Part shown: positions 5,493-50,163 of the stretch, in pieces
Numbering within the stretch: the stretch's first letter is position 1
Layout of the letters: every line of letters begins with the position of its first letter
NCBI GenBank assembly: GCA_963760795.1
Contig: CAVXEP010000007.1
Location: forward strand, 104,146-168,145
Origin: an uncultured delta proteobacterium
GTDB taxonomy: Bacteria; Desulfobacterota; Binatia; UBA9968
DNA length: 64,000 nucleotides
Direction: 5' to 3'
Notes under the pieces: model-generated
Database searches by the model: none
Told to the model about the DNA's origin: nothing
Seen by the model: only the letters and a program-made list of their open reading frames with translations
Program-made: the position numbers and the translations under genes

Positions 5493-6536
5493 CTAATTGT
5501 CGCCCAGAAGTTCTTTAACTCGTCCGATCAGTTGCGGCGGCTGATCGATTACTTCCCGCGCCAAGGCTTGCAGTTCTTCGCCGCTGACTTGTTCCAAGCT
5601 CCAGTTACGTTTTCTTGCTTCTTCGATCAGATCGGGGTCTTTCAACGCGCGCGCGTAGGCTTCGCGCAGAATCTTCACACGCTCGGCGGGCGTTGCCGGC
5701 GGCGCGACGGCGGGATATTGGCCGAAATGATCGGCGCCGAGCAGCACCGCCGCTAGACGCTGTTTGGCTTCGGGCGTTTGATGGCGCGTCATCAGTTCGT
5801 AGATTGTCGGCACATCGGCGAGTTTTGGGTTACGCTTGCGCCCGCTCTGTACCAGGATGCGGACGAAGCCATTTTTCTGCCAACTGATAAACGGTTCGCG
5901 GGCGAGGAAAGACGCCGAGGACACCGAACGGCATTGCACTTCGCCTCTCTCGATGGCGAGGTCTTGATCGCTGCCGCTCTTGTAACCGGTGACGATGCGA
6001 AACTTCGCGCCCAGCGCATCTTCCAAAACTTTGAGGCTGATATGTCCGCTCGACCCCGGAGCCGTGGCGGAACATTTGGGCGGCTCGCCGGCAGTGCGAA
6101 TATTTTCTATCGATTTGTACGGCGCATCGGCGCGCATCATCAACAGCGCCTCAACCAGGCCCGCCGAGCCGATCCAGCTGAACTTGCGCCAATCGAACTG
6201 GACTTCGCGCCGGCCGGTGAGCTGCTGAAAATAAAGACTCGCCGAGATTTGGCCGAGGGTAAGGCCGTCCGGTTTGGCGACGCTGTAGAGATAATTGGCC
6301 GAGATCATCGAACCGCCGCCGGCCATATTCTGCGCCACGATGTTCGGGTTCCCTGGAATATATTTCACCAGATTGCGCGCCAGGGCGCGCGCCCAAAGAT
6401 CGTTGGCATCGCCGGCCGCCATGTTGACGATGAACGTCATGGTCTTGCCTCGATAGAAATCGCTTTGAGCTGATGCGGGGATGTTTGCGAAAAGCACCAT
6501 TGCGGCGCAGCTGAGAAGCCAAGCGAGCAGTCCCAT
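5493..6536 (-). CDS. Bug/TctC-family substrate-binding protein
   Basis: FYRGKT, QNMAGGG, KPDGLT, PPKCS, GEVQCR; start probably MGLLAW at 6536 because the upstream in-frame part is repeat-derived. Confidence 0.88.
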   Translation of the reverse strand: MGLLAWLLSCAAMVLFANIPASAQSDFYRGKTMTFIVNMAAGDANDLWARALARNLVKYIPGNPNIVAQNMAGGGSMISANYLYSVAKPDGLTLGQISASLYFQQLTGRREVQFDWRKFSWIGSAGLVEALLMMRADAPYKSIENIRTAGEPPKCSATAPGSSGHISLKVLEDALGAKFRIVTGYKSGSDQDLAIERGEVQCRSVSSASFLAREPFISWQKNGFVRILVQSGRKRNPKLADVPTIYELMTRHQTPEAKQRLAAVLLGADHFGQYPAVAPPATPAERVKILREAYARALKDPDLIEEARKRNWSLEQVSGEELQALAREVIDQPPQLIGRVKELLGDN

Positions 6537-6651
6537 CCCCCTTTGGAAAAGGGGGACTAAGGGGGATTTGTTTTTGCGTGCGTGGGAAAGTTCCGCCTGT
6601 GAAAATCCCCCTATAGAAAATCCCCCCATACCCCCCTTTTTCAAAGGGGGG
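6537..6651. repeat. CCCCCTTT..AAAGGGGG inverted-pair repeat
   Basis: ccccctttggaaaagggggactaagggggattt ... aaatccccccatacccccc..ttcaaagggggg. Confidence 0.85.
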
Positions 6652-6709
6652 AACTGCCAAGCATAGATCGAGCTGATCATTATACGTTCGCGGTAGAGGT
6701 CGTTTCAGT

Positions 6710-7434
6710 CTAAAAGGTAACGCGGGCCAGCTGGCCAACAGCTTGCCGAATCCGCGCAGCGGGTGTTTCAATCCAAGCTTGGACAGCATGTACCAATTCA
6801 TCGCCGGATTGCTCGCGACGACCGGCAGATTCAATTCGCGCTCCATCTGTTCAAGACACTCCATCGGATCGAGCACCGCACCTTGGAAATAGATCGCGTC
6901 CACTTGGCGCTGCTCGCTGATCGCCCGGCGCGCGTAGGCGATGACATCGTCGGGGGTCATTTTGAGCGCGTCGGTGTAGTGCGGCAAAGTTTCGCCAGGG
7001 GAAATGGCAACCAGGTCGAATCGGCCGAGAAAGTCGCGAATCAGTCGATTCAACGATGGATCGAACGGCGTGAGCAGGAGAATCCGTTTGGCGGCAAAAG
7101 TTGTCAGCGCCGCCGCCGAGGCGCGCAATGCCGTGGCGACGGGAATTTTGAGCGCCGCGGCAAAGGCGTCAGACAAATTAGGATTCAACACTTCGCGCGG
7201 CGCGCCGGGGAATATCAAGCCGTTTAGCTTCTGCTTGTCGGCGAACTGCACGGCGCGGCTGACGATCAAATCCAGTTTGCCCTGGACGTCATTCAAGACA
7301 CCGTCGTGCAGCACCAGCTGCTCGTAAAGGACTTCGACGTTGGCCGGCACCAAGTTGAGAAACTTTTTAATATGCGAGCTCGACTGCGCGCTGGGTCCGA
7401 GCCAGCCGATTCTTGGGTTGTGATTGTCAGACAT
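6710..7434 (-). CDS. Asp/Glu racemase - maleate isomerase / arylmalonate decarboxylase superfamily protein
   Basis: RIGWLGPS, AKRILLLTPF, EQMERELNLPVVASNPAM, GFGKLL; the stop is probably lost by a T-run deletion at ~6711 (CCT TTT AG), so the ORF runs on into the next gene. Confidence 0.8.
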
Positions 7435-7581
7435 CGGCCACTCCATTCGACGATTCTACTGCGCCGGCGTAGATTTAACTCCGCCGCGATCAGACTGCTT
7501 TCCCTATAGAGTAGAATCCGCCGCGCGATTGCCGCCGCACCATTGTCCGTAAGTAGCCGCGCTCAATGAGAAAAATCCATC

Positions 7582-7662
7582 TCACCACGAAGGACACGAA
7601 GAGCACGAAGTTCAGAGAATTAATTCTCCAAACCTTCGTGTCCTTCGTGACCTTCGTGGTAA
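7582..7662. repeat. CACGAAG-type inverted repeat (uninterrupted copy)
   Basis: caccacgaaggacacgaagagcacgaag ... cttcgtgtccttcgtgaccttcgtggt. Confidence 0.85.
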
Positions 7663-7725
7663 AAACTCTCTCCCATTTGGTTGCGGCTGTGCCGCGATTA
7701 GGGATTTGGCGGTTCGTTACTTTTT

Positions 7726-8828
7726 TTACGCCTGGCCCCAGACTTTAACGGCGGTATCGACTACCAACTTGAGCTTTTGCCACTGCTGCTCCTCCGTCAA
7801 CAGATTGCCCTCCATCGTCGAGGCGAAGCCGCATTGCGGACTGAGCGCGAGATTCTCCAACGGCACGTACTTGGCGGCTTGGTCGATGCGCCGGGCCAGT
7901 TGGTCCGCCGACTCCATGGCCGCCAGCTTGCTGCTCACCAGGCCGAGAACCACGCTCTTGCCGCCCGGCATGAAGCGCAGCGGTTCGAATGTCCCGGCGC
8001 GCTCGGACTCGTACTCGAGCAGAAACGTGTCGACCTGCAACTGGCCAAACAGTTTCTCGGCGATGGCGTCGTAGCCGCCCTCGGCGTACCACTGGCTGCG
8101 GTTGTTGCCGCGGCACAGATGTATCGCCATGATCACCCCCTCGCGCTGCGCTCCCTCCAGGCAAGCGTTGTCGGCGCGAATCGCTTCGTCAAGCGCCTGC
8201 TCGGGATCGAGCCCCATTTCGTCTTTCACGTAGCTGCGCCACTTCGGATCGATGTAGTAGCTGTAGCGCGGCGCGTCGATTTGGATGTAGCGCGCCCCTT
8301 GGGTCGACAAGGCGTCAATCTCGGCCTTGATCACCGGCACGATGTCCCACAGAAAAGCGGAATGGTTGGGATAGACCTGGTCGCTGATGCCTTTCTTATA
8401 ATAGATCGCGGGAAACTGATTGGCGGTGGGCAGCGTGACTTTGATGTCGCCAGGCTGCTGCTGCTTCAAGAAGGCGAACTCATGGTCGGTCAGGCGCCGG
8501 GTTTGTTTGATCTTGCCGACAACCGTGCCGGGCACCATCGAGGGACGGGACGATGCGCCGGCTGCCGTTTGCCAAGTGCGCGGCACCGCCACCCCTTCGT
8601 CGATTCCTTCCACGGCTTCGTTGAAATCGCTCATGAAGTTGCCGCGGCGCAGCTCGCCGTCGGTAAAGATCTTGAAACCGAGCTCCTTCTGCTTCTCGAT
8701 CACTCGCAGGATGTGCTGTCCTCGAGCGCGCGCAGCTCTGTGCCGCCGACATTCGCGCTGCGTGCCTGCAATAGCTCCGCGGGCCGAAGCAAACTGCCAA
8801 TGTGATCGGCGCGATACTGGGTTGCCAT
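7726..8828 (-). CDS. Cobalamin-independent methionine synthase II family protein, copy 1 (one frameshift ~8720)
   Basis: YRADHIGSLLRP, TDGELRR, HLCRGN, LLEYE, LSPQCGFAS; GGAGG RBS; 1-nt deletion relative to copy 2. Confidence 0.9.
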
Positions 8829-8919
8829 AATACCTCCTTAAGAGCCGCTTAATTGATCCCTGTCGATGCCTTTCCGCTTTCGCGGGAAAGACACCGGTAA
8901 CTAAACAAATGGTTCTCTC

Positions 8920-9933
8920 TTAACCAGTGATTGGCTCACTCTCTAATGACAAACCCGCCACAGTTGCCAACGCTCTCTGGGTATAAACCTTGGCCATGCG
9001 CTTACGATACCAATAGTCCAGATCGGCGTTGTCGAGGGGATGGGAAATCTTCGCCGCGGCATCGGCGACGGCGTCAATCAACTCCTTGGTGACTTTCTTG
9101 CCCTGAAGCAAGGTCAAGGCTTCGGTCACAACCTTTGGCGCCGAGGCGACCGCCGTCAGTACCACGCGCGCATCGCGGCATTCACCCCGATCATCGATGT
9201 CCAGGGTCGCCGCCACTCCCAGGATCGGAAAGTCGAAGGAGCCGCGCCGGCGCAGCTTCATGTAGATGTTGCGCCAGCCCAACACTTGCCGCGGGATGAG
9301 CAAACCTTTTAGCACTTCATCGTTAGCCTTGGTCGAATAGTCGATACCGTCATCGCGGTATAGCTCTTCGAGGTTGACCCGCCGCTCGCCTTTTGGACCG
9401 ACTAGGACCGCTTCCGCTCCCAAGCTCACCAGCACTGGCGCGGTATCCGATGACGCGATCGCCAGGCACTTGGCGCTGCCGGGAGCGACCAAACAAATAT
9501 CGCCGTCTTTCTTAATGCAGAAGCCGGCCGCCTGACGCCAGAAAAAAGTTTGGTCGTAATAGTTGCAGCGAGTGTCGACAAGAACGTTACCGCCGATGGT
9601 GCCCATGTTGCGTAGTTGCGGTGTGGAAACCGATACCGCCGCGTGGGCGAGGGCGGGAAAATGTTTTGCGATCAGGCGATGATGCGCAATCGCCGTAAGG
9701 CTTTCGCCGGCGCCGATCCATAGGCCTGCTTGGCTCTGGCGAATGCCTTTAAGCTCACGCAGCGATCGGAGCGAAATGAGATGACGCGGCGTGAATTGCC
9801 CGCGCTTCATTTTCGGATAGACGTCCGTGCCGCCGGCCACGAGCATCGCGTCCGGGCCAAATTCAGACAACATCTTCGTTGCTTGGCGCAACGTCCGTGG
9901 TTGAAGGTAATTAAATTCTGGTAGTCGAAGCAT
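8920..9933 (-). CDS. hcrB: Xanthine dehydrogenase-family FAD subunit, 4-hydroxybenzoyl-CoA reductase beta-like
   Basis: AGGTD, RNMGTIGGN; four-Cys insertion DTRC..GFC..DIC..KC, as in the [4Fe-4S] site of HcrB. Confidence 0.8.
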   Translation of the reverse strand: MLRLPEFNYLQPRTLRQATKMLSEFGPDAMLVAGGTDVYPKMKRGQFTPRHLISLRSLRELKGIRQSQAGLWIGAGESLTAIAHHRLIAKHFPALAHAAVSVSTPQLRNMGTIGGNVLVDTRCNYYDQTFFWRQAAGFCIKKDGDICLVAPGSAKCLAIASSDTAPVLVSLGAEAVLVGPKGERRVNLEELYRDDGIDYSTKANDEVLKGLLIPRQVLGWRNIYMKLRRRGSFDFPILGVAATLDIDDRGECRDARVVLTAVASAPKVVTEALTLLQGKKVTKELIDAVADAAAKISHPLDNADLDYWYRKRMAKVYTQRALATVAGLSLESEPITG

Positions 9934-9950
9934 GGTATCTCGATACCTGC

Positions 9951-10034
9951 ACCCTCACCCTTCCCTCTCCCTCGATTACGAGGGCGAGGGTAAGACTTTT
10001 CCCCTCTCCCGTTGGCAGAGGGCTAGGGTGAGGG
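9951..10034. repeat. CCCTCACCC..CCCTCTCCC palindromic repeat
   Basis: ccctcacccttccctctccc ... ccctctcccgttggcagagggctagggtgaggg. Confidence 0.7.
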
Positions 10035-10051
10035 AATTCTGTGACATAATT

Positions 10052-12428
10052 TCAACTCTTCTGGGTTACTTCCACACCATCGCCCGGATGCCACTTGATC
10101 GGCGCGGGAAATTTAAAGTCGGGAATCGAAGTCGCTTTCAGCCGGCCGTCGAGGGCGCGCAGGATCTTGTCCGGCGTGATCGGCACTTCATGGATGCGCA
10201 CGCCGATGGCGTCATAGAGCGCATTGGCAACCGCGGGAACCACCGGCAGGAGCGGACCCTGGCCGGCTTCCTTGGCGCCGTAGGGGCCTTCGGGATCGAT
10301 GGTCTCGACCAAAATCGTTTCAATCTCCGGCGTCTCCAACGTCGTCGGACTTTTGTATTCCAGAATCGACGGAATTTTATGCAGACCGTTTTTGCGGAAG
10401 ATCTGCTCTTCCATCAGCGCCTCGCCGAGAGCCATGTAAACACTGCCTTCGGTTTGACCTTCGACGAGCAGCGGATTGAAGGCGCGGCCACAGTCGTGGG
10501 CGATCCAAATTTTATCGATTTTAATCTCGCCGGTGGCGCTGTCGCAGTGCAGCTCGACGATAGAAGAAGTAAAACTATAGGCCGGCGTGGGGCCGACGCC
10601 CGAGCCTTTGAAGTCGCGCGGGTTCTTGGGCGGCCAATAGCTGCCCGTGGCGCCCAGCGCGCCGTGTTTGCTCTCCGCCTTGACTACGGCATCGGCAAAG
10701 CTTATGCCGCGCTCCCGCAGGCTTGCGCTGCGAACTTTGCCTTCGGCAAATTCGAGATCATCCGGCGGAACCTCCAACGCTTCGCTCGCCGCTTCGAGGA
10801 GCAGGGGCTTGAGCTTGGCGCAAGCCTGAATCGCTGCGTTTCCGGTCATTACGGTCACGCGGCTGGAATAGCTGCCGAGATCCACCGGCGTGAGATCGGT
10901 ATCGGCGGTCAACACCCGGATGTCGCCGGGGTCGATGCCGAACTCTTCGGCCACGGCGTAAGCCAGAATGGAATCCGATCCCTGGCCGATGTCGATGGAG
11001 CCGCAAAAAACCGCGACGCCGCCGCTGCGGTCGAGCTTAATCTGCACGCCGGAGTGAGGCATGTTGTTCCAATAAATCGGCAATCCCGCGCCGCTGATGT
11101 AGGAGCTCGCCGCGAAGCCGACGCCGTGGCCGAACGGCAGCTGGCGAAATTTTTTCTTCCACTCGGCGCGCTCGGCGACGCGTTCGGTGCATTCGCGTAG
11201 CCCCGTGCTGCTGACGCGCAAACCGTTCACCGTGATGCTGTTGGGCTTGACGAGCTGTTTGAGCCGCAACTCGATCGGGTCGAGGTTGAGTTTCTCGGCG
11301 ATTTCATCGAGCTGAATCTCCAGCGCGAAGCGCGGCTGCGGCGTGCCGTGGCCACGCTTCGGTCCGCAGGCCGGCTTATTGGTAAAAACTCGCACGCCCT
11401 CGAACTTATAAGCCGGCACTTCGTAAGTCACCGTCTGCAGCGCGCCGGTATAATAGACCGAAGCCAAGCCGTAGCTGCTGTAGCCGCCGCCGTCGAGATA
11501 GGTTTTATACTGCATCGCCTGGATCGTGCCGTCGTTCTTCACGCCGGTCTTGGCGAACATCTTGACCGGGTGGCGGCCGCGATGGACGTAAAACGTTTCC
11601 TCCCGTGTGAGCGTGATCTTCACCGGCCGTCTGGTGATCATCGAGAGTTTGGCCGCGCAGATCTCGTGCGAAAAAGGATCGCTCTTGCCGCCGAAGCCGC
11701 CGCCGACCGGAGTTGCGACAACGCGTATTCTGCTCGCGGGTAATCCCAGAACTTTCGCCAAGGTGCGATGGACATAATGCGGCGTCTGCGTCGAAGACCA
11801 CAACGTGAGCTTGTCATCGGGGCCGTAGAAGGCCACCGCGGCGTATTGCTCCATCGGTAGATGAGTATTGCCCTGGTAGAAAAATGTCCCCTCTAAAACA
11901 AAATCTGAGCCGGCGAAGCCGCCGTCGACGTCGCCGAATTCGAACGACACGGCCTTTTGAATGTTGGCGTGACGGTTCCAGGTATGAATCCGTTCGCTCT
12001 CTTCGGTGCAAGCCAGCGCTTCTTCGATGGAAAGAATCGGTTTCAGGACCTCGTACTCGACGTCAATGCAAGCCGAGCGCTTTTTCGGCTATACTCTCGC
12101 TCGCCGCAGCCACTGCCGCCACCGGATCGCCGGCGTAACGGACTTTGTCAATCGCCAGCGCCTCTTCGTCTTCGGTCGAAGGCATGATGCCGAATTTTTG
12201 CGGCAGGTCCGCTCCGGTGAGCACGGCGAACACACCGTCGAGTTTGACTGCCCGCGCGATATTGACGCCAAGCACCCGCGCGTGCGGGTGGGGACTGCGC
12301 AAAAGTTTGGCATACAGGGTGCGCGGCAGATTGAGATCGTCGGCGAAGACGGTGGTGCCGGCGCATTTCGCCATGGCGTCGATCTTGCGCAGCGGCTTGC
12401 CGATTACCGACAGAGTCTGCTTTTTCAT
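10052..12428 (-). CDS. hcrA: Xanthine dehydrogenase-family molybdopterin subunit, HcrA-like (one frameshift ~12067)
   Basis: SVIGKPLRKID, RSPHPHARV, VGGGFGGK, RGHGTPQ, DIGQG, YSSR, VEGQTEG, GPYGAKEAGQ. Confidence 0.8.
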
Positions 12429-41468: not shown

Positions 41469-42467
41469 TTATCTTATGACCCGGTCCGCCCGCACCAGCA
41501 CGTTGGGCGGAATCGTCAGGCCGATCTGCTTCGCCGCTTTCAGATTGATGATGAACTCGAACTTCATCGGCTGCTCGACGGGAAGATCGGCGGGCTTCGC
41601 GCCTTTCAAAATCTTGTCCACATAGGTGGCGGCGCGGCGGTAGAGGTCGTTGAGACTCACGCCGTAGCTCATAAGCCCACCGTCTTCCACAAAGTCTGTC
41701 AGCGGAGTACATCGCCGGGAGCCGGTTCTTTACCGCGAGATCGGCAATCTGTTTTCGCTGAAAGAGTGAAGACGGCGCCTCGCGCAGCACCAGGACTGCC
41801 TCAGCACGCCCCTTGCTTGCGGCTCGGAATACAGTCTCAATATCCTTGGGACCTAGTACGTCTAGATATTGAAGCTTCACTCCGAGCGCCCCGGCGGCGA
41901 GTTCCGTCTCTTTAGCGCTTGTGCGTTGCCCGGCATGGTTGAAGTCCCGAAGACGGCCACGCGGGAGAGCTTAGGAACGATCTCTTTCAAAAGCTCCAGC
42001 CGTTTGCCGCTTAGCTCCGGCGCAAGGGTTGACAATCCAGTGATGTTTCCACCAGGTCGCGCAAGGCTGGCGACGATCCCGGTTCCAACAGGATCGCTAT
42101 CCTGCGCCATGACAATGGGAATCGTAATAGTTGCTTCCTTAGCAGCCCGGGTCGCTGACCGGACCGCCTGTGACGATGACGTCGACTTTGAGACGCACTA
42201 ACTCGGCGGCAAGCGCGGGGAGACGATCGAGTTTTCCCTCTGCATATCGATACTCAATGACAATGTTTTTCCCCTCCACGTACCCAAGCTCGCGCAGGCC
42301 CTGGCGGAATGCCTCGATGCGGTCCGAGACAACGGAAGGGGAGGCACATCGTTAGGAATCCTATCCGGGGGATTTTCGTTGGCTGCTGCGCCTGCGCGGT
42401 CAAGGCTAAGCGCGAAGAGCAAAGCGCAAAGTGAAAGACGCTTGATGTTATTTCTCAAATGTCTCAT
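41469..42467 (-). CDS. ABC_sub_bind (PF04392-type) substrate-binding protein, tandem copy A, frameshifted
   Basis: [45 protein letters not shown]. Confidence 0.8.
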
Positions 42468-42522
42468 TTGTGTTTTCTTGTTTCTTGCGCATTGCTCTCT
42501 GCCCTATGCGCTTGGCGTTCTA

Positions 42523-43520
42523 TCACCGAATCACTTTATCCGCCCGCACCAGCACGTTGGGCGGAATCGTCAGACCGATCTGCTTCGCCGCTTTCAGATT
42601 GACGATGAACTCGAACTTCATCGGCTGCTCCACGGGAAGATCGGCGGGCTTGCGCGCCTTTCAAAATCTTGTCCACATAGGTAGCGGCACGGCGGGCCAA
42701 GTCGGCTAGGCTCGCGCCGTAGGTCATAAGCCCACCGGCTTCGACAAATTCACGCCGTGGAGTAGATCGCCGGGAGCCGGTTCTTTACCGCGAGATCTGC
42801 AATCTCTGTTCGATGAACATTGATGACGGAGCTTCGCCAGCACGAGGACTGCGTCAGCACGCCCCTTGGTTGCGGCGCGGAATGCAGTCTCAATATCCTT
42901 GGGATCTAGGACGTCTAGGATATTGAAGCTTCACCTTGAACGCCCCGGCGGCGAGTTCGATTTCTCTTAACGTTTGTGCGTTGCCCGCGTTGGTTGAAGT
43001 CCCGAAGACGGCCACGCGGGAGAGCTTCGGAACAATCTCCTTCAAAAGCTCCAGTTGTTTTCCGCTTAACTCCGGCGCAAGCGTCGACAACCCAGTAATG
43101 TTCCCCCCAGGTCGCGCCAGGCTAGCGACGAACCCGCTGCCAACAGGATCGTTATCCTGCACCATGACAATGGGAATCGTATCTGTTGCTTCCTTGGCGG
43201 CTCGGGTATCTGTCGCACCACCCGTGACGATGACGTCTACCTTCAGACGCACTAGCTCGGCGGCAAGCGCGGGGAGACGGTCGACTTTTCCCTCTGCAAA
43301 TCGAAACTCAATGACAATATTTTTCCCCTCCACATAGCCCAAGCTCGCGCAGACCCTGCGCGGAAAGCCTCGATGCGGGCCGAGACAGCAGAAGGGGAGC
43401 TGGCACATAGGAATCCTATCCGCGGGATTTTCGTTGGCTGCTGGGCACCGCGGTCAAGGTAAGCGCGAAGAGCAAAACGCAAAGTGTAAGACGCTTGATG
43501 TTACTTCTCAAATGTCTCAC
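42523..43520 (-). CDS. ABC_sub_bind substrate-binding protein, tandem copy B, frameshifted
   Basis: [30 protein letters not shown]; ends ADKVIR. Confidence 0.8.
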
Positions 43521-43575
43521 ATGTGATCTCCTGTTTCTTGCGCATTGCTCTCTGCGCTATGCGCTTGGCGTTCGA

Positions 43576-44591
43576 TCACCGAATCACTTTATCCGCCCGC
43601 GCCAGCACGTTGGGCGGAATCGTCAGGCCGATTTGCTTGGCTGCTTTCAGATTGACGATGAACTCGAACTTGATCGGCTGCTCGACGGGCAGGTCAGCGG
43701 GCTTGGTGCCTTTCAAGATCTTGTCCACGAAGTCGCGGCGCGGCGGAACAGGTCGGAACAGCTCGGCGCGTAGCTCATCAGGCCGCCGGCTTCTCACCAA
43801 ACTCACGTCGCTGAGTACATCGCCGGGAGCCGGTTCTTGACCGCGAAGCTCCGACACTCTGTGTTCGCTGAGTAGCGAAAGTGCCTCCGCCCTGGCGTAA
43901 AGATCGCCTGCGTCGGCCTGTTGCTTGATCGTCATCGCGTAATGCGTCTGCGAAATCGTTAAGACTTCGCACGGCAAGGACTCGCTGAAGCTTTCACTCC
44001 CAACGCCTGGCCGCGCCTCGATTTCCGTCAGATTCAGCTTCTTCTCGGTGCCACCCGCTTCGCACTAAGAAGACGGCGACTCGGACAGCTTTCGGAAGGA
44101 CTTCCTTGAACAGCTCCAGCCGTTTGCCAGCTTAGGTCCGGCGCCATGTCAGCTAATCCGGTGATGTTTCCGCCAGGCTTCGCGCCAGGCTGGCGACCAA
44201 TTCCGGTTCCAACAGGATCGCCGGCGCAAGCGCGAATACGATGGGAATCGTTGTCGTCGCTTCTTTAGCAGCTGCAATTGTCCCGGACCACCGGTGACGA
44301 TGACGTCGACTTTGAGACCGACCAGTTCGGCTGCAAGGTCAGGCAGGCGATCGGGATTTCCCTCGGCATATCGGTACTCGAATGACGAATGTTTTCATCC
44401 TCGACATAGCCCAAGCTCGCTGCAGCCGCTGGCGGAAATGCTTCGATCCGGGCCGATTGCGACGAGAGGCGGCGTATCAGTTCGAAGAGAATTCCTATCC
44501 GCGGGATTCTTCTCGGCTGCTGCGCCTCGGATGCAAAGCTAAGAGCCAAAAAAATGGCGCCCAGAGCAAAGACGAAGATTTTTTTACTCAT
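43576..44591 (-). CDS. ABC_sub_bind substrate-binding protein, tandem copy C, heavily frameshifted
   Basis: [17 protein letters not shown]; [15 protein letters not shown]; middle part corrupted. Confidence 0.7.
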
Positions 44592-44643
44592 AGGATTTCT
44601 TCGCGCTGCAAAGTTCAGAATCGAAAAAGCATTGTGTCGCGCA

Positions 44644-44755
44644 CGTCATTCCTGCGCGCGCGGGAATCCAGACCCGCCATCCTCCTGGATACCGTTTTTC
44701 AACGGTATGACGGACGCTGTCCGTCAGCTGGATTCCCGTTGTCACGGGAATGACG
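44644..44755. repeat. CGTC-type palindromic repeat cluster
   Basis: cgtcattcctgcgcgcgcgggaatccag, ctggataccg..cggtatgacg, ctggattcccg..cgggaatgacg. Confidence 0.8.
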
Positions 44756-44769
44756 GATGATGGAGCACA

Positions 44770-45693
44770 CTAGCGAAAAGTCTCCTTGATGTAGCGGTAC
44801 GCCGCGATCGCCGCGGTGGCGCCGTCGCCGGCGGCGGCGATGGCTTGTCGCGCCGAGTCCTGGCGGATATCGCCGACGGCGTAGAGGCCGCCGCGCGTGG
44901 TTTCCATCCAGGTGTCGGTCGGGACATGGCCGGTGTCGCCTAGCTGAACGATATTTTTCACCAGCGCCGTGTTCGGCTGCAAGCCGACGTAAACGAATAG
45001 GCCGGCGAGCTCGACTTGGGAAGTTTCGCCGGATCTAACGGCGCGAGCGCGCACGCCGGTGACGACTTCGTCGCCGAGAACTTCTTCGATGACCGTTTGG
45101 TAATGCGGCGTGATCTTCGAGTTGTCCAACACCCTTTGCAAATAGGTCTGCTGCGCGGCAAACGAATCGCCCTGATGAAAGAGCAAGACTTTCTCGGCGT
45201 AATTGGTCAGCGCCAACGCTTCCTGCAGCGCCGAGTCGCCGCCGCCGACGACGCCGACGGTCTGGCCGTTGTACATCGGGCCGTCGCAGCTGGCGCAATG
45301 GCTGACGCCGCGGCCCATGAGTTTTTCTTCTCCCGGGACACCGAGATGCTTGAGTGTCGAGCCGGTGGCGACGATCACCGCTTTGGCCTGATAGCTCTCT
45401 TCCTCCGTGACCACCGACCAGAGTTTTTCTGCCGCATCGAGTCGCAAAACTTCGGCGCGTTGAAACTCCGCGCCATGATCCGAAGCCTGACGCTGCAAGT
45501 TGGGGCAAATTTCATAGCCGGAAACGCCGTCGGGGAAACCGGGAAAGTCTTCGATCTTTTCAATGCTGATCAGATGGCCGCCGGGGATGTTCGATTCGAA
45601 AACCAAAGTCGAGAGTCCCTGGCGCGCCGAAAAAAGCCCGGCGGTGAGGCCGGCGAGGCCGGAGCCGACAATGATTACATCGTAATCTGCCAT
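44770..45693 (-). CDS. trxB: Thioredoxin reductase-family FAD-dependent disulfide oxidoreductase
   Basis: GSGLAG, ATG, GVSHCASCDG, GGGDSA, YAVGD, AAGDG. Confidence 0.88.
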   Translation of the reverse strand: MADYDVIIVGSGLAGLTAGLFSARQGLSTLVFESNIPGGHLISIEKIEDFPGFPDGVSGYEICPNLQRQASDHGAEFQRAEVLRLDAAEKLWSVVTEEESYQAKAVIVATGSTLKHLGVPGEEKLMGRGVSHCASCDGPMYNGQTVGVVGGGDSALQEALALTNYAEKVLLFHQGDSFAAQQTYLQRVLDNSKITPHYQTVIEEVLGDEVVTGVRARAVRSGETSQVELAGLFVYVGLQPNTALVKNIVQLGDTGHVPTDTWMETTRGGLYAVGDIRQDSARQAIAAAGDGATAAIAAYRYIKETFR

Positions 45694-45819
45694 GATGTCT
45701 TAGTATTCTTTCGTGTACTGTGAGCTTCGTTCGAAAGTAAGGGGTCAGGGGTAAGGAGTTAGGTGTGGGGATGACGGACGCCTCACTCCTGACCCTTTAC
45801 GCCTTACTGTTCCCGTCTG

Positions 45820-47485
45820 TTATCTCCATTTATCCACCGACACCGTCTTCTGATAGTTGCAATCCATGATGCGCCAGTAGCCGTTGGTTTCGCCGCCGAC
45901 GACGACGACGTGGATTTCCTCGGGCTTGAACATGTGGATCATTTCGTCCGGGCCGGCTTTTAACTTCGACGCGTAGGGTTCTTCGCCGAAGGTGGCGCGT
46001 GGATAGGATGTAATTTTGGATCAATTGATAATCCCAGTATTCCTTCGCCGCCATGAGCGAGTTTTCATAGGCCCATTCGATCAACTTCTCTTTGCTGTCG
46101 AAACCGCCGCGGTCGATGAACTGACGCGCGGTGATGGGATCGAGCAAGAAGGTCGGGCGGCTGTGGGCGTCGAGACCGCGCAGCATGCTGCGCACATGCT
46201 CGCGCCAATATTGCTCGCGCACGCCGAGGGTAAACGCCGTCGAGCGGCAGCCGGTGAATACGCTGACGGCGCTGTCGCTGGCCTTGAAACCATGTCCGAC
46301 GTGGAACGGTGTCCACGGGCTGCGCTCCTCGTTCTCGGCAAAGGTCACGTTGTTGTAGGCGTAGTTGTTGCCCTGGGAGCCCATGTAGGTGACGCCGGGC
46401 ACCGAGCTGCCTTGGCCGTTTTGCGAGAGCAGGCCGTAGGCGCGGCCGATGGTGGCGTTGGCGTGGTTGAACGGTCCCATGGCGCCGGTGCCGCTGTTCA
46501 TCTTAATTTCGTTTCTAATCGGTCCGTTGACGACCACCATGGCGGCCGCTGAGCTCGACGTGCTGCCGCGGGCGGTGACGCCGGTGGACGCGAGCGCCAG
46601 GATCACCGGAAAGTATTCCGGCCGGGCGCCGGACATCACCGCGTTGACCGCGACTTTTTCCACCGTGTATTCCCAGTATTCTCTGAAATGGGTCGAGCGC
46701 ATGTGGCCGACCACTTCGTCGGGCTTGTGGCTGGTGTGCGCGAGCATTTCCTTGACGCGTTTTTCCGTCGGCAGGACGATGGGCAGCTTGTCGGTCCAAT
46801 TTTTGTCGAGAAATAGCTGCTGCAAATTCTCTTCGCTATCGGCATCGACCAGGCGCGGCGTCGCGGCATGGGCGAATTTCTCACTGACAACGCCGCTGTC
46901 GTCGATCGGTTGGGTCAGCCCCTCGATGACTTCCTGCATCACCGGCCGGCCGCTGAGCGGGTCCTTGCCGTCGATGTAGGCGCGCAGTTGTGCCGCGGTC
47001 TTGCCCATCACCGGTTGCGGCACGAAGGCGCGCGGCGCCCGCGGCATGCCATGGACGCGGTTCACCGACTCGACGACTTTTTCAAACACATGGGTGTGCA
47101 GCGCCACCGTGGGCACACCGTATTTATTATCGAGGGTCATTGCATGCGCGGCGACCGCCGGCGCACAGGTGCTTCAATGACCGACACCGACGATGGCGGC
47201 ATCGCCGTCGGCTTTGATCTTCTCCCAGGTCTGCGGATCGTCCTTGGTGTAGACGTTGTTCATCTCGATGAACTTGGTTTTTACCGTCGGCATGTTGTCG
47301 GTGAACCAACTCTGCAACTGGCGCAGAAACAGTCCCGAGTCGTCGAAGCGCGGATCGACTAAATAGACGGTCTTGCCGTCCAAGCTGTCGAGCCGCGGCG
47401 CCAGCGCTTTGGGCGTGATCTTGGGCGGATAGCCCACCGGGTTTAACACCGACATGTTTTGGGTTGCGTTAGTGCTGTCAGCCAT
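45820..47485 (-). CDS. UGSC-family (seleno)protein: Sec at TGA 47174-47176 (GVGH-U-STC), fused to a large C-terminal domain; frameshift ~46005
   Basis: ORFs 47174..47485 and 45830..47140 share a frame and are separated only by TGA + STCAPAVAAHA; LAPRLDSLDGKTV N-terminus; WTDKLPIVLPT, TVEKVAVNAVM, ANATIGRA, AENEERSPW; C-terminus IHVVVVGGETNGYW..VDKWR lies in a shifted frame. Confidence 0.85.
47143..47168 (-). promoter_or_regulatory. Bacterial SECIS-like hairpin
   Basis: UGUGCGC(C)GGC-GGUC-GCCGCGCAUG; the G-initiated apical loop starts 17 nt after the UGA. Confidence 0.7.
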
Positions 47486-47572: not shown

Positions 47573-47657
47573 GGTAGGGGCTACCCGGCGCCTGCCCTGA
47601 GCGGAGTCGAAGGGTGGTCGCCTGTCCCAGAGGGCAGACACGCAGGCCTACCCCTAC
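47573..47657. repeat. GTAG-type REP pair interrupted by a CCTGAGC..GTCGAAGGG module
   Basis: gtaggggctacccgg[cgcctgccctgagcggagtcgaaggg]tggtcgcc ... gggcagacacgcaggcctacccctac. Confidence 0.7.
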
Positions 47658-48724
47658 TCGGCGAGAAGTTTTTTTACTCTCTCGATCACCTCGGCGCTCT
47701 GGTCCATGACTTCGTGCGCGAGCTTTTGCAACTGCTCTCCCGGCGTGTAGTCGACATCCAGGTTGCTCTTCTTCACCTCGGCAAGCAGCTCGGGGTCCTT
47801 GAGCGCTTGCGCGTAAGCGGCGCGCAGGATCTTCACGAGTTCCGCGCGCGTGCCCGGCGGCGCGATCAGGGCGCGGCCAAAATCATTCGCCGTGAGCACC
47901 GTTTCGGCAACACTCCGGCTCACCTGCGGGGTCTTGTATTCACTCATGATCTCCCAGATCGTCGGCGTCTCGGGCAGCCTCGGGTCGCGGCTGCGCGCGT
48001 CCTGCACCAGATGGCGGTCGTAACCTTTCGCATGCCAAGTGTTAAACGGTTCACGGCCGAAGTGAGATGAGATGTCATGACCGCGGCAGACCACCTCGCC
48101 CTTTTCCACGGCAAGATCGATTTCTTTGCCGCCGGCGTAACCGACGATGACATTGAATTTCGCGCCGACGGTTTCCTCCAGAATCTTGGGTAAAATGTAG
48201 CCGGAGCTGGCAAAGCCCGAGGCGCCGCATTTCGGCGGCTCTTTCGCCTTGATGACATCGCCGATGGTTTTGAAAGGAGCGTCGCCGCGAAAATAGAGCA
48301 TCTGCGTCCATTTTTCTTGGCTGCCGATCCAGTCGAATTTGCGCACGTCGAACTTGACCTCGGTGCGTCCGACCAGTTGGGTTAGATAGAGGCTGCTATT
48401 CGGTATGCCGACGGTGAGGCCGTCCGGTTTGGCGACGCTGTAAACGAAATTGGCTGCCACCACCGAACTGGCGCCGGGCATGTTTTGCACGATCATGTTC
48501 GGGCGCCCCGGAATGAATTTCGGCATGCTCCGGGCGAACATGCGCGCCCATTGATCGGACAAACCGCCGGCGGTGAAACCGACGATAATTCGAATCGTCT
48601 TGCCTTGGTAGTAGGGCTCCGTTTGCGCCTGACCTGGAGCCGTTATAGCGCCGCAGAGCAGAATCGCGACCAAAGGCAGCGCACACATCGACGCGCGCAC
48701 TAAGAATGGAAATTTTTCAAACAT
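47654..48724 (-). CDS. Bug/TctC-family substrate-binding protein
   Basis: YYQGKTI, QNMPGAS, PPKCGASG, GEVVCR. Confidence 0.9.
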   Translation of the reverse strand: MFEKFPFLVRASMCALPLVAILLCGAITAPGQAQTEPYYQGKTIRIIVGFTAGGLSDQWARMFARSMPKFIPGRPNMIVQNMPGASSVVAANFVYSVAKPDGLTVGIPNSSLYLTQLVGRTEVKFDVRKFDWIGSQEKWTQMLYFRGDAPFKTIGDVIKAKEPPKCGASGFASSGYILPKILEETVGAKFNVIVGYAGGKEIDLAVEKGEVVCRGHDISSHFGREPFNTWHAKGYDRHLVQDARSRDPRLPETPTIWEIMSEYKTPQVSRSVAETVLTANDFGRALIAPPGTRAELVKILRAAYAQALKDPELLAEVKKSNLDVDYTPGEQLQKLAHEVMDQSAEVIERVKKLLAE

Positions 48725-49128: not shown

Positions 49129-50163
49129 ATGAAAAAGACCAGCTGTTTGGCTCTTGTCCATTCTCTTGTGGTCGGTCGAAGTTGCGGCGCAAACTCCCTA
49201 CTTCCAGGGTAAGACCATCAGGGTTGTCGTCGGTTATCCCAGCCGCCAGCGCCCATGACCTGTGGGCGCGGCTAATCGCGCCGCAGTTGACCAAACATAT
49301 TCCCGGCAACCCGGCCACCGTCGTGCAAAACATGCCCGGCGCCGGCTCGATGACCGCGACCAACTACATTTACAGCGTGGCGAAGCCGGACGGCTTGACC
49401 CTCGGCGTCAATAACGCGGCGCTTTACTTCGAACAGCTCCTCAAAAAGAAAGAAGTTCAGTATGACTGGTCGAAATTCACCTGGGTCGGCAGCACGACGC
49501 CGACTAACCCGTTGTTGTATATGTGGGCAAACACACCCTACAAAACCATCCAGGACGTGCGCACCGCGACCGTGCCGCCGAAGTGCGGCGCGACCGGCAC
49601 GGGAAACACCGGCTATTATCTTCCCGAAATTGCTCGAAGAGATCATCGGCGCGAAGTTTCAAATCGTCACAGGCTATGAAGGCGGCGCGAGTATCGAATT
49701 GGCGGTGGAGCGCGGCGAAGTGCAGTGCCGCGCCTTTACCGTGCAAGTGTTCTTCGGCCGCGAGCCGTTTAACACCTGGCGCAGCAAGAACCTGGTGCGG
49801 GTACTGGTTCAAGGCGGCAAGAAGCGCGACCCGCGCTTGCCGGAAACGCCGCTGTTGAGTGAGTTAATGGATCAATACAAGGTTTCGGAAGCCAATCGCC
49901 GATTGGTGACCGTGATGATGGGATCGGGCGAATTCGGCGCCGCGCCGATGTTCGCCGCGCCGGGAACTTCGCCGGAGCTGACCAAGATATTGCGCGCGGG
50001 TTATGCCAAAGCGCTCACCAGCCCTGAGCTCATTGCCGACGCCAAAAAGCAGGGTCTCGAACCTGAGCTGATTCACGGCGACGAGATCGAAGCACTTGCC
50101 AAGGAAGTGTTGACCCAGCCGGCCGAAGTTATCGCGTCGATGAAGAAAGTCATGGGAGAGTGA
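49129..50163 (+). CDS. Bug/TctC-family substrate-binding protein, frameshifted
   Basis: GGAGG-ATG 49129; YFQGKTI, QNMPGAG, PPKCGATG, GEVQCR spread over several frames. Confidence 0.85.

Follow-up and report, generated by a model that had tools for sequence, protein, structure and literature searches.

A selenocysteine-containing UGSC fusion protein and a thioredoxin reductase-like flavoprotein as a candidate redox pair in an uncultured Binatia bacterium and its relatives

Two neighbouring genes are the subject of this work, both located on the minus strand of a 64,000-nucleotide stretch of DNA from an uncultured delta proteobacterium (GTDB lineage Bacteria; Desulfobacterota; Binatia; UBA9968; NCBI GenBank assembly GCA_963760795.1, contig CAVXEP010000007.1, positions 104,146 to 168,145 of the forward strand). 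This whole stretch is called the window hereafter, and positions are given in its numbering. The first gene of the pair encodes a selenoprotein in which a UGSC domain is fused to a larger C-terminal domain, and the second a flavoprotein resembling thioredoxin reductase (TrxR). We consider it rather probable that this is a dedicated flavoprotein, which reduces the U/C-x-x-C centre of the UGSC domain and so serves a reaction taking place on the fused domain. A dedicated reductase had already been proposed in an initial annotation of the window, made from the letters alone, and the proposal has gained a conserved neighbourhood, a clade of its own and a predicted contact between the two proteins, while the recycling of a selenenylsulfide by this enzyme is what we infer from them.

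The pairing of the two genes is more than chance. The search for relatives of the selenoprotein in contigs representing one genome per species gave 577 confirmed relatives, the best 80 loci of which were kept, and a TrxR-like gene lies at 6 kb or less in 35 of these 80. Where at least 1.2 kb could be inspected on both sides (65 loci), this gene is found directly downstream on the same strand in 23 cases, directly upstream on the same strand in four, upstream and divergent in one, and within 6 kb without being adjacent in another four. It is therefore adjacent in 28 of the 65 loci, made up of 7 of the 24 Sec (selenocysteine) forms and 21 of the 41 Cys forms, and in 3 of the 15 loci with shorter flanks; in the locus from Chelativorans (L053), the two genes are only 11 nt apart. 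Linked loci span Thermodesulfobacteriota, Chloroflexota, Alpha- and Betaproteobacteria and Actinomycetota, so that the linkage first noticed in this window is conserved in several phyla and in both Sec and Cys forms. As a separate observation, the fusion match of a Xanthobacteraceae metagenome-assembled genome (L060) extends over about 4.1 kb (6001-10154), as would be expected of two paralogues in tandem; a TrxR-like gene, in which the motif reads ERG, is found there on the other strand at a distance of 1.5 kb.

The TrxR-like protein matches Pyr_redox_2 over its full length and reaches 327.1 bits with the model TIGR01292, below the equivalog cut-off of 343.45, whereas the canonical TrxR encoded elsewhere in the same genome reaches 419.9 bits. 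Its closest solved relatives are NADPH-dependent TrxRs (E 8e-72), and a clostridial FFTR structure, 6gna, follows at E 3e-29. The FAD-binding motif GSGLAG is present at residues 10-15. As pointed out in the initial annotation, the protein keeps CASC and GGGDSA (the latter at residues 150-155, positions 45229-45246) and carries HQGDSFAA (residues 173-180, positions 45154-45177) in the place of HRRxxxR, where the canonical TrxR of this genome reads HRRDKLRA. The same combination is seen in five cultured genomes with the fusion, which have only two to five TrxR-family matches each, among them one or two canonical TrxRs (384-416 bits) and a copy below the cut-off (263-316 bits) beside the UGSC gene.

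In a maximum-likelihood tree of 43 distinct rows, from which matches with fewer than 250 aligned residues or with stops had been left out, all 33 UGSC-linked TrxR-like sequences fall into one clade (96/92), apart from the eight canonical ones (100/100), and two long-branch outliers stand outside both. Members of this clade have a His directly before CxxC (31 of 33, against none of the eight canonical sequences) and, also in 31 of 33, a Pro where canonical sequences have the first Phe of the pair that follows CxxCDG; the window protein shows CDG-PMY for CDG-FF. GGGxxAxE is kept throughout the clade. The full HRRxxxR is found in none of the 33, and HRRxxx[R/K] in seven of the eight canonical TrxRs.

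According to the accessible text of PMC5627308, HRRD binds the 2'-phosphate of NADPH, GGGxxAxE the pyrophosphate, and G[R/K]G together with Phe the thioredoxin; the same text describes the GGG motif as highly degenerate in the NAD(P)H-independent TRi, and the NADH-preferring TR3 as keeping the pyrophosphate motif and having Pro at the Phe position. Because GGGxxAxE is kept, our best guess from these motifs is that the clade would still be nucleotide-dependent and no longer NADPH-specific, with NADH or a relaxed use of NAD(P)H favoured over ferredoxin or F420. The suggestion in the initial annotation of a non-NADPH reductase is thus strengthened as far as the lost 2'-phosphate motif is concerned, and its ferredoxin or F420 variants have become less likely. 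Asp or Glu is found at positions 175-177 in 8 of the 33 clade members, and, by the rules known for Rossmann folds, acidic residues at such positions point to NADH. These residues also speak against a reductase that uses no pyridine nucleotide at all and depends on ferredoxin, flavodoxin or F420, like FFTR, DvTRi or DFTR. That alternative would account for the absence of all three 2'-phosphate Arg residues from the window protein, a feature shared, in the accessible parts of PMC5627308 and PMC10880999, with the known NAD(P)H-independent TRs, which likewise lack HRRD. It is, however, quite unlikely, taking into account that the pyrophosphate motif is strictly kept in the clade and degenerate in DvTRi, that the TQ/NGK motif of TRi is absent from the TrxR-like protein, that FFTR structures are a far weaker match than NADPH-dependent TrxRs, and that many of the carriers are aerobic Alpha- and Betaproteobacteria.

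The contact between the two proteins was examined by complex prediction with the natural Cys-type pair of L053, using the TrxR-like protein and the UGSC domain, each with its alignment. The complex scored 0.71, against 0.01 for the best of three controls; of 157 solved complexes, 116 attain this mark, as do 2 of 215 mismatched pairs, a calibration that is rough because alignments made for this work were used. The pair comes from another genome and is of the Cys type, and the score itself expresses the confidence of the model and is no measurement. Three runs share at least 73% of the contacts, with a partner pLDDT (predicted local distance difference test) of at least 81. Among the residues placed with confidence in the interface are 132-133, 136-137 and 139-140 on the flavoprotein side (H-C...C-D..P-L) and 99-102 on the side of the UGSC domain (C-S-T-C). 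Thus, the CxxC of the one would be set against the U/C-x-x-C of the other, as expected from the pairing proposed in the initial annotation, and this placement of the two redox centres supports binding. Since the UGSC domain has no thioredoxin fold (see below), it is less likely that the result stems from the recall of a solved TrxR-thioredoxin complex.

From these data a self-contained redox relay formed by the two gene products can be proposed, in which direct electron transfer, the donor and the whole of the substrate chemistry are what we infer, the predicted complex lending support to direct transfer. In the model, the Sec/Cys pair U104-S-T-C107 is located at a strand-helix junction of the flavodoxin-fold UGSC domain, and the substrate would probably be bound by the C-terminal domain. 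The selenol would attack the substrate held there, and Cys107 would then resolve the adduct, giving rise to a selenenylsulfide. Later, the dithiol of the TrxR-like motif C133-A-S-C136 would reduce this selenenylsulfide directly, with no thioredoxin involved, and FAD would pass on to it the electrons of a pyridine nucleotide that is not NADPH, most likely NADH.

Besides the rough calibration of the complex score, several observations weigh against this proposal. Of the 65 loci with full flanks, 33 show no TrxR-like gene within 6 kb. When five genomes with no such neighbour at the sampled locus were checked, four of them were seen to have a clade-type gene elsewhere, in two cases beside a second copy of the partner domain; the only TrxR of the fifth, G210 (Chloroflexota), is a canonical one of the HRR type, which implies that the selenoprotein can work with another reductant, presumably the general thioredoxin/TrxR system. 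The gene appears within the 1.5-kb flanks of only 1 of 30 UGSC loci from a phylum sample and from this same genome, being rare beside short forms of UGSC, and thus the link may be specific to the long-form subfamily with the H-[U/C]-S-T-C motif. HRR is found in one clade member and the last Arg in seven of the 33, and two of the three Arg residues are retained in seven, so that the loss of NADPH use would not be uniform. The thioredoxin-binding motif G[R/K]G is kept (GRG in the window protein), which makes a thioredoxin substrate possible. Moreover, among the contigs of the RNA-seq runs searched, none bridges the junction between the two genes (45694-45819), and the selenoprotein gene is frameshifted as assembled, so that this copy could be dead, a point considered further on.

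Some of the same observations have led us to consider that the TrxR-like gene encodes a second, stress- or condition-specific TrxR, which acts via ordinary thioredoxins and does not reduce the UGSC domain directly, the two genes being neighbours as members of a shared redox or stress regulon. The conservation of G[R/K]G and of the whole TrxR architecture, the closeness of ordinary NADPH-dependent TrxRs among solved structures, the half of the loci with no neighbouring TrxR-like gene, and the MarR, Fur, ferritin-like and GST genes near some loci would fit such a role, and the thioredoxins could be supplied by three thioredoxin-sized PF00085 genes located elsewhere in the genome. Nevertheless, no thioredoxin gene accompanies the pair here, as the initial annotation had stated (none of the nine PF00085 matches of the genome lies on the contig of the pair), and none was seen among the neighbours scanned in ten loci. 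Furthermore, the first Phe in contact with thioredoxin has been replaced by Pro in nearly all clade members, the clade accompanies the UGSC fusion from one phylum to another, and the predicted complex joins both redox motifs with clean controls. Taking all this into account, we regard a condition-specific TrxR of the ordinary kind as improbable, and a flavoprotein dedicated to the UGSC domain remains the preferred explanation.

The N-terminal part of the selenoprotein matches Pfam PF24696 at residues 13-169 with 82.7 bits (cut-off 25), and its U104-S-T-C107 occupies the conserved position of the U/C-x-x-C motif of the UGSC family. With the NCBIfam equivalog NF041046 it scores 54.3 bits, below the cut-off of 125, and the motif reads H-U-S-T-C where the classical one is D-U-G-S-C; from these scores, the protein is to be seen as a member of a diverged long-form subfamily and not as an equivalog of the UGSC protein of about 150 aa. 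The name UGSC selenoprotein given in the initial annotation leaves out that two thirds of the protein are a separate domain, and the frameshift of the gene as assembled had not been noted there either. The AlphaFold model of an intact relative, 97% identical, has a pLDDT of 93.4 and a predicted template modelling (pTM) score of 0.91. In it, the N-terminal domain resembles CheY-like, B12-binding-like, flavodoxin-like and Rossmann-like structures (Z 9-10.6, root-mean-square deviation 2.4-4.4 Å over 113-138 residues) and, as modelled, shows no resemblance to the thioredoxin fold. The family is large: of 8,000 candidates scored (clusters at 90% identity), at least 5,772 match the whole protein with E<=0.001, and the Cys forms of about 552 aa are named 'UGSC family (seleno)protein' in RefSeq.

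The reading of the single in-frame TGA as Sec is borne out by comparison, since at the same aligned codon 31 of the 80 related loci have TGA and the other 49 have TGC. A SECIS-like hairpin (selenocysteine insertion sequence) is found 10-28 nt past this codon, its 19 nt and six pairs being almost invariant in 32 sequences of Sec forms. At the third positions of codons +4 to +9, the majority base has a share of 0.90-1.0 in the Sec forms and of 0.49-0.82 in the Cys forms, which encode the same peptide; such a freeze of synonymous sites, limited to the Sec forms, is the trace that an RNA element leaves. In its GGUC loop and spacing, the hairpin would resemble the SECIS of Escherichia coli fdhF. 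The fold of the single sequence downstream of the TGA is no better than that of shuffled sequences (z -0.36), none of the Rfam models matches the hairpin, and covariation is uninformative because the pairs hardly vary. The genome contains selA, selB, selD and the tRNA-Sec, all above cut-offs, the last of them above the Rfam threshold; selD, with an in-frame TGA of its own, selB and selA are clustered (G000:C11:1948-7514), and the tRNA-Sec gene is found at C13:190670-190760. There are three UGSC-domain genes in this genome, each with one in-frame TGA. The database matches of 438-441 aa (83-95% identity) are Sec forms as well, their start having been placed by gene callers past the TGA.

As assembled, the selenoprotein gene contains one extra base (CC on the coding strand), after which the frame leads into an Arg-rich tail ending at 45830. 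By alignment with homologues, the insertion falls after ...YWDYQLIQNYI, between QNYI and YPRATF, and the other frame runs YPRATFGEEPYASKLK...VSVDKWR to a TAA at 45820-45822, as in every relative. The five closest loci (L009-L013), 90-97% identical, are all intact, all contain the TGA and end in ...VDKWR or VDEWR. The sequencing runs compared held at most 45% of the sampled words and thus represent relatives, with whose contigs the insertion was compared; the contigs of two soil-metagenome runs that cross the site are each one base short, at 46004 or 46006. At least two other single frameshifts exist in this assembly, one in a second UGSC fusion (L089) and one, apparently, in a TctC-like gene at 49.2-50.2 kb. 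In the latter (49182-50163, plus strand), the overlapping open reading frames (ORFs) 49182-49679 and 49462-50163 jointly resemble the intact TctC-type receptor 47654-48724, which suggests one more single frameshift, a judgement made by eye on the translations; no Pfam match was obtained for ORF 49462-50163 at 1e-4.

Because relatives are intact, their contigs lack the extra base and the assembly has other single frameshifts, an assembly error is judged likelier than a pseudogene, and is the most likely origin of the insertion; the pair would then be intact in the organism. It might be argued that the selenoprotein gene is a pseudogene and the pair a decaying remnant, given that the insertion replaces the last 62 residues or so, nearly invariant positions among them, and that several broken solute-binding-protein genes surround the pair. 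This is unlikely in our opinion: the remainder of the gene is free of defects and shares 97% identity with a relative whose copy is intact, the contigs of near relatives are free of the extra base, and the other frameshifts give a pattern typical of consensus errors in assemblies.

The C-terminal domain, of about 350 residues, has been assigned to no family of Pfam, even at E<=10, or of NCBIfam. Modelled alone with AF2 it reaches a pLDDT of 94.8, and, when this model was compared with 48,161 chains by VIA-align, the highest Z was 5.2, for 76 residues that belong to the last alpha/beta sub-domain only. With Foldseek against the PDB, the best match of the domain has an E of 4.4e-3 and a TM (template modelling score) of 0.27, to a class I fumarate hydratase, and the whole protein gives nothing clear (best TM 0.15-0.17). 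A profile search of PDB sequences returned nothing meaningful for the domain (best E 0.79), and in the ESM Atlas only unnamed clusters of 350-384 aa match it. The domain is thus without a clear solved relative, a missing match being no proof of a new fold. Searched alone, it finds 3737 clusters at 50% identity with E<=0.001. No cysteine is conserved in it across a diverse alignment, and its invariant or near-invariant residues include T231, D232, P239, T240, S312, N343, R348 and E384. The accessible text of the 2008 GOS (Global Ocean Sampling) paper describes a 'UGSC/Unknown_1' fusion (PMC2398784), and the C-terminal domain is probably this Unknown_1. Pfam searches of the UGSC and partner domains gave no match to the GRDA and GRDB families of GrdA, GrdB and PrdB at E<=10.

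The UGSC domain and the domain of about 350 aa form one unit, as obligate companions, and their fusion occurs here and in over 5,000 clusters. In a set of 30 UGSC loci, 28 from a sample of 201 genomes of the phylum and two being the other copies of this genome, the partner domain is fused to the UGSC domain or directly beside it in all 30, in either order. In that even sample, UGSC matches occur in 24 of the 201 genomes, some of which hold 8-16 copies; in G176, G039, G129 and G115, the 6-16 UGSC-domain matches are mostly long forms with one TGA. Such numbers per genome suggest a family of paralogues with diversified substrates. Both other UGSC genes of the genome studied here show the classical D-U-G-S-C motif. 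One (L090, G000:C16:38251-41763) encodes a separate selenoprotein of 183 aa, located after an amidohydrolase-like gene and followed 170 nt later by the gene of a 365-aa homologue of the partner domain, and the other (L089, G000:C13:26227-29727) is a frameshifted fusion beside a gene that resembles quinolinate synthase by eye. Four further proteins of 709-741 aa (P0188, P0204, P0205 and P0269), with two stretches matching the partner domain and no Pfam family when scanned, may be tandem duplications of this domain with no recognisable UGSC domain. In a scan of 11 proteins, all close relatives of the fused subfamily, no thioredoxin was seen joined to the partner domain.

The positions of the elements described are collected in Table 1. 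The spacing on the same strand of about 125 bp noted at the outset has been confirmed, the spacer being 126 nt with the corrected end of the selenoprotein gene and 136 nt as assembled. The selenoprotein gene starts with an ATG at 47485, with AGGAGG 8 nt upstream. The imperfect hairpin of the spacer (45735-45810, 70-nt) has a fold that is not significant (z -0.79), and no promoter-like site was found in this intergenic region, against 1.7 expected. In addition to the terminator-like site listed, two more occur in the interval that separates the selenoprotein gene from the upstream TctC gene, consensus matches only; the scan that provided them found 10 sites, against 6.3 +/- 2.3 in shuffled sequences. 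GC-rich inverted repeats flank the reductase gene, at 44640-44760 (…GGGAATCCAG…CTGGATTCCC…GGGAATGACGG) and in the spacer hairpin, and are possibly REP-like intergenic repeats, their fold not being significant. Regarding transcription, parts of each of the two genes are represented, with 88-100% identity, in contigs of two RNA-seq runs from the rhizosphere, DNA carry-over being possible. One RNA-run contig joins 45660 to 47185, skipping 1,524 nt, and its shorter side has only 26 letters; it is probably from another organism or a chance match.

Table 1. Elements of the selenoprotein/flavoprotein gene pair in the window (all on the minus strand)
Element	Positions	Strand	Remarks
UGSC-fusion selenoprotein gene	45820..47485	-	about 553 codons, with TGA as Sec and the 1-base insertion allowed for
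UGSC domain	46979..47449	-	residues 13-169; flavodoxin-like alpha/beta fold in the model
In-frame TGA, read as Sec	47174..47176	-	codon/residue 104, GVGH-U-STC-APAV; single in-frame TGA
SECIS-like hairpin	47146..47164	-	10-28 nt past the TGA; 3+3 bp stem, internal bulge, GGUC loop
C-terminal domain	45823..46873	-	about 350 residues; no family assignment
1-base insertion (CC on coding strand)	46006..46007	-	shifts the frame of the last ~62 codons; relatives without the extra base
Intergenic spacer	45694..45819	-	126 nt with imperfect hairpin; no terminator-like site found
TrxR-like flavoprotein gene	44770..45693	-	307 aa; member of the UGSC-linked clade; ATG at 45693
Dinucleotide-binding region	45154..45246	-	GGGDSALQE kept; HQGDSFAA for HRRxxxR
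Redox-active CASC	45286..45297	-	residues 133-136; His before, D-G-P after
Terminator-like hairpin and T-run	44558..44574	-	about 200 nt past the TrxR-like stop codon; consensus match only

The catabolic neighbourhood that had been suggested for the pair is weak and not conserved, the surroundings differing between loci. Other neighbours were surveyed by targeted tblastn and Pfam scans, the clustering of all ORFs being confounded by antisense ORFs in high-GC DNA. Among the 80 loci, TctC-type receptors are found near about 19, SBP_bac-type proteins near 10, MarR regulators near 8, and the combination of malonyl-CoA decarboxylase, AMP-binding enzyme and GntR regulator near 4-6. In the window, the pair is surrounded by solute-binding-protein genes, several of them broken, and by two amidohydrolase_2 genes; the region 41869-44600 contains, on both strands, truncated copies of ABC_sub_bind (PF04392), for example at 42890-43408 and 43576-43977, which are either decaying paralogues or assembly frameshifts. 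In L053, L063, L075 and L040, from Alphaproteobacteria and Agromyces, the pair lies beside malonyl-CoA decarboxylase, AMP-binding (malonyl-CoA synthetase-like) and GntR/FCD genes, and these malonate-type neighbours may hint at the substrate.

As for what was known before, UGSC proteins numbered 255 in the GOS study, were the top family in several of its non-marine samples and belonged to the most abundant selenoproteins of aquatic metagenomes, as stated in the accessible text of PMC2398784, and a 2026 review, in the part available, places UGSC with the bioinformatically discovered selenoproteins for which the biological role is still largely uncharacterised (PMC13188914). The open full-text literature, which leaves most subscription journals outside the search, makes no mention of a TrxR-like partner of UGSC proteins in the text seen. 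Thus, the family and its fusion are known, and the function, the fold of the partner domain and the reductase clade are undescribed in the literature searched. The present work supplies an obligate partner domain, a TrxR-like reductase, apparently dedicated, with altered contacts, and cultured carriers of the all-Cys form (for example Bradyrhizobium sp. C9, Ramlibacter paludis and Chelativorans sp. J32), with which the function of the family becomes open to ordinary experiments. It would also add a new branch to the TrxR paralogues that left NADPH and thioredoxin behind.

By analogy, and as a tentative extension that we consider possible but doubtful, the pair could be the core of a hitherto undescribed class of thioredoxin-independent selenoenzymes, in which an NADH-linked TrxR paralogue directly recharges a Sec/Cys carrier domain of flavodoxin fold, itself connected to a catalytic domain for whose fold there is no solved relative, for the reductive cleavage of a small organic substrate, in a manner similar to glycine reductase and with no evolutionary relation to it. 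If this were true, the many paralogues (up to 16 UGSC matches per genome) would each serve a different substrate, and the neighbours resembling malonyl-CoA decarboxylase and synthetase (4 of the 80 loci, in two phyla) would indicate a malonate-yielding substrate for one subgroup.

Comparison with known systems places each of the two proteins close to a described family. With the UGSC family of Zhang and Gladyshev (PF24696, NF041046), the selenoprotein shares the domain match, the place of the U/C-x-x-C motif and the fusion to a conserved partner domain, and it differs from it in the H-U-S-T-C motif and in a score below the NF041046 cut-off; moreover, a thioredoxin-like fold is suggested for UGSC in the accessible text of PMC2398784, and the model obtained here is flavodoxin-like. 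Taking into account how the pair would operate, the nearest parallels are two client/reductase couples. In AhpF-AhpC, a TrxR-family flavoprotein is encoded beside its client and re-reduces its redox centre. Glycine reductase (GrdA with the TrxB/TrxA of its operon) would work alike, with a dedicated TrxR-family flavoprotein beside a Sec/Cys-Cys client, as far as the available text of PMC10880999 describes it. Both differ from the present pair in that they have no sequence relation to it and in that no gene for a thioredoxin intermediary is present here.

The flavoprotein has in common with the low-Mr NADPH-dependent TrxR (TrxB, TIGR01292) the two-domain architecture, a CxxC located within the nucleotide domain, and the motifs GGGxxAxE and G[R/K]G, and departs from it in the score below the cut-off, the absence of HRRxxxR, the His before CxxC, the Pro for Phe and the separate clade that travels with UGSC; its gene is, in addition, an extra copy beside a canonical TrxR, in the five cultured genomes and in this one. 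TR3 and TRi of Desulfovibrio vulgaris, the clostridial and cyanobacterial FFTR, and DDOR are likewise TrxR paralogues without the 2'-phosphate motif. TRi differs in its TQ/NGK motif, absent here, and in its degenerate GGG, which is not degenerate in our protein; the structures of FFTR show weak similarity to it, and no conserved C-terminal tail of the DDOR type was seen in the clade alignment. D. vulgaris TR3, in the accessible text of PMC5627308, agrees with the clade in retaining the pyrophosphate motif and in showing Pro for the thioredoxin-contacting Phe. The partner of those atypical TRs is Trx3 or Trx, and in the pair described here it would be the UGSC domain.

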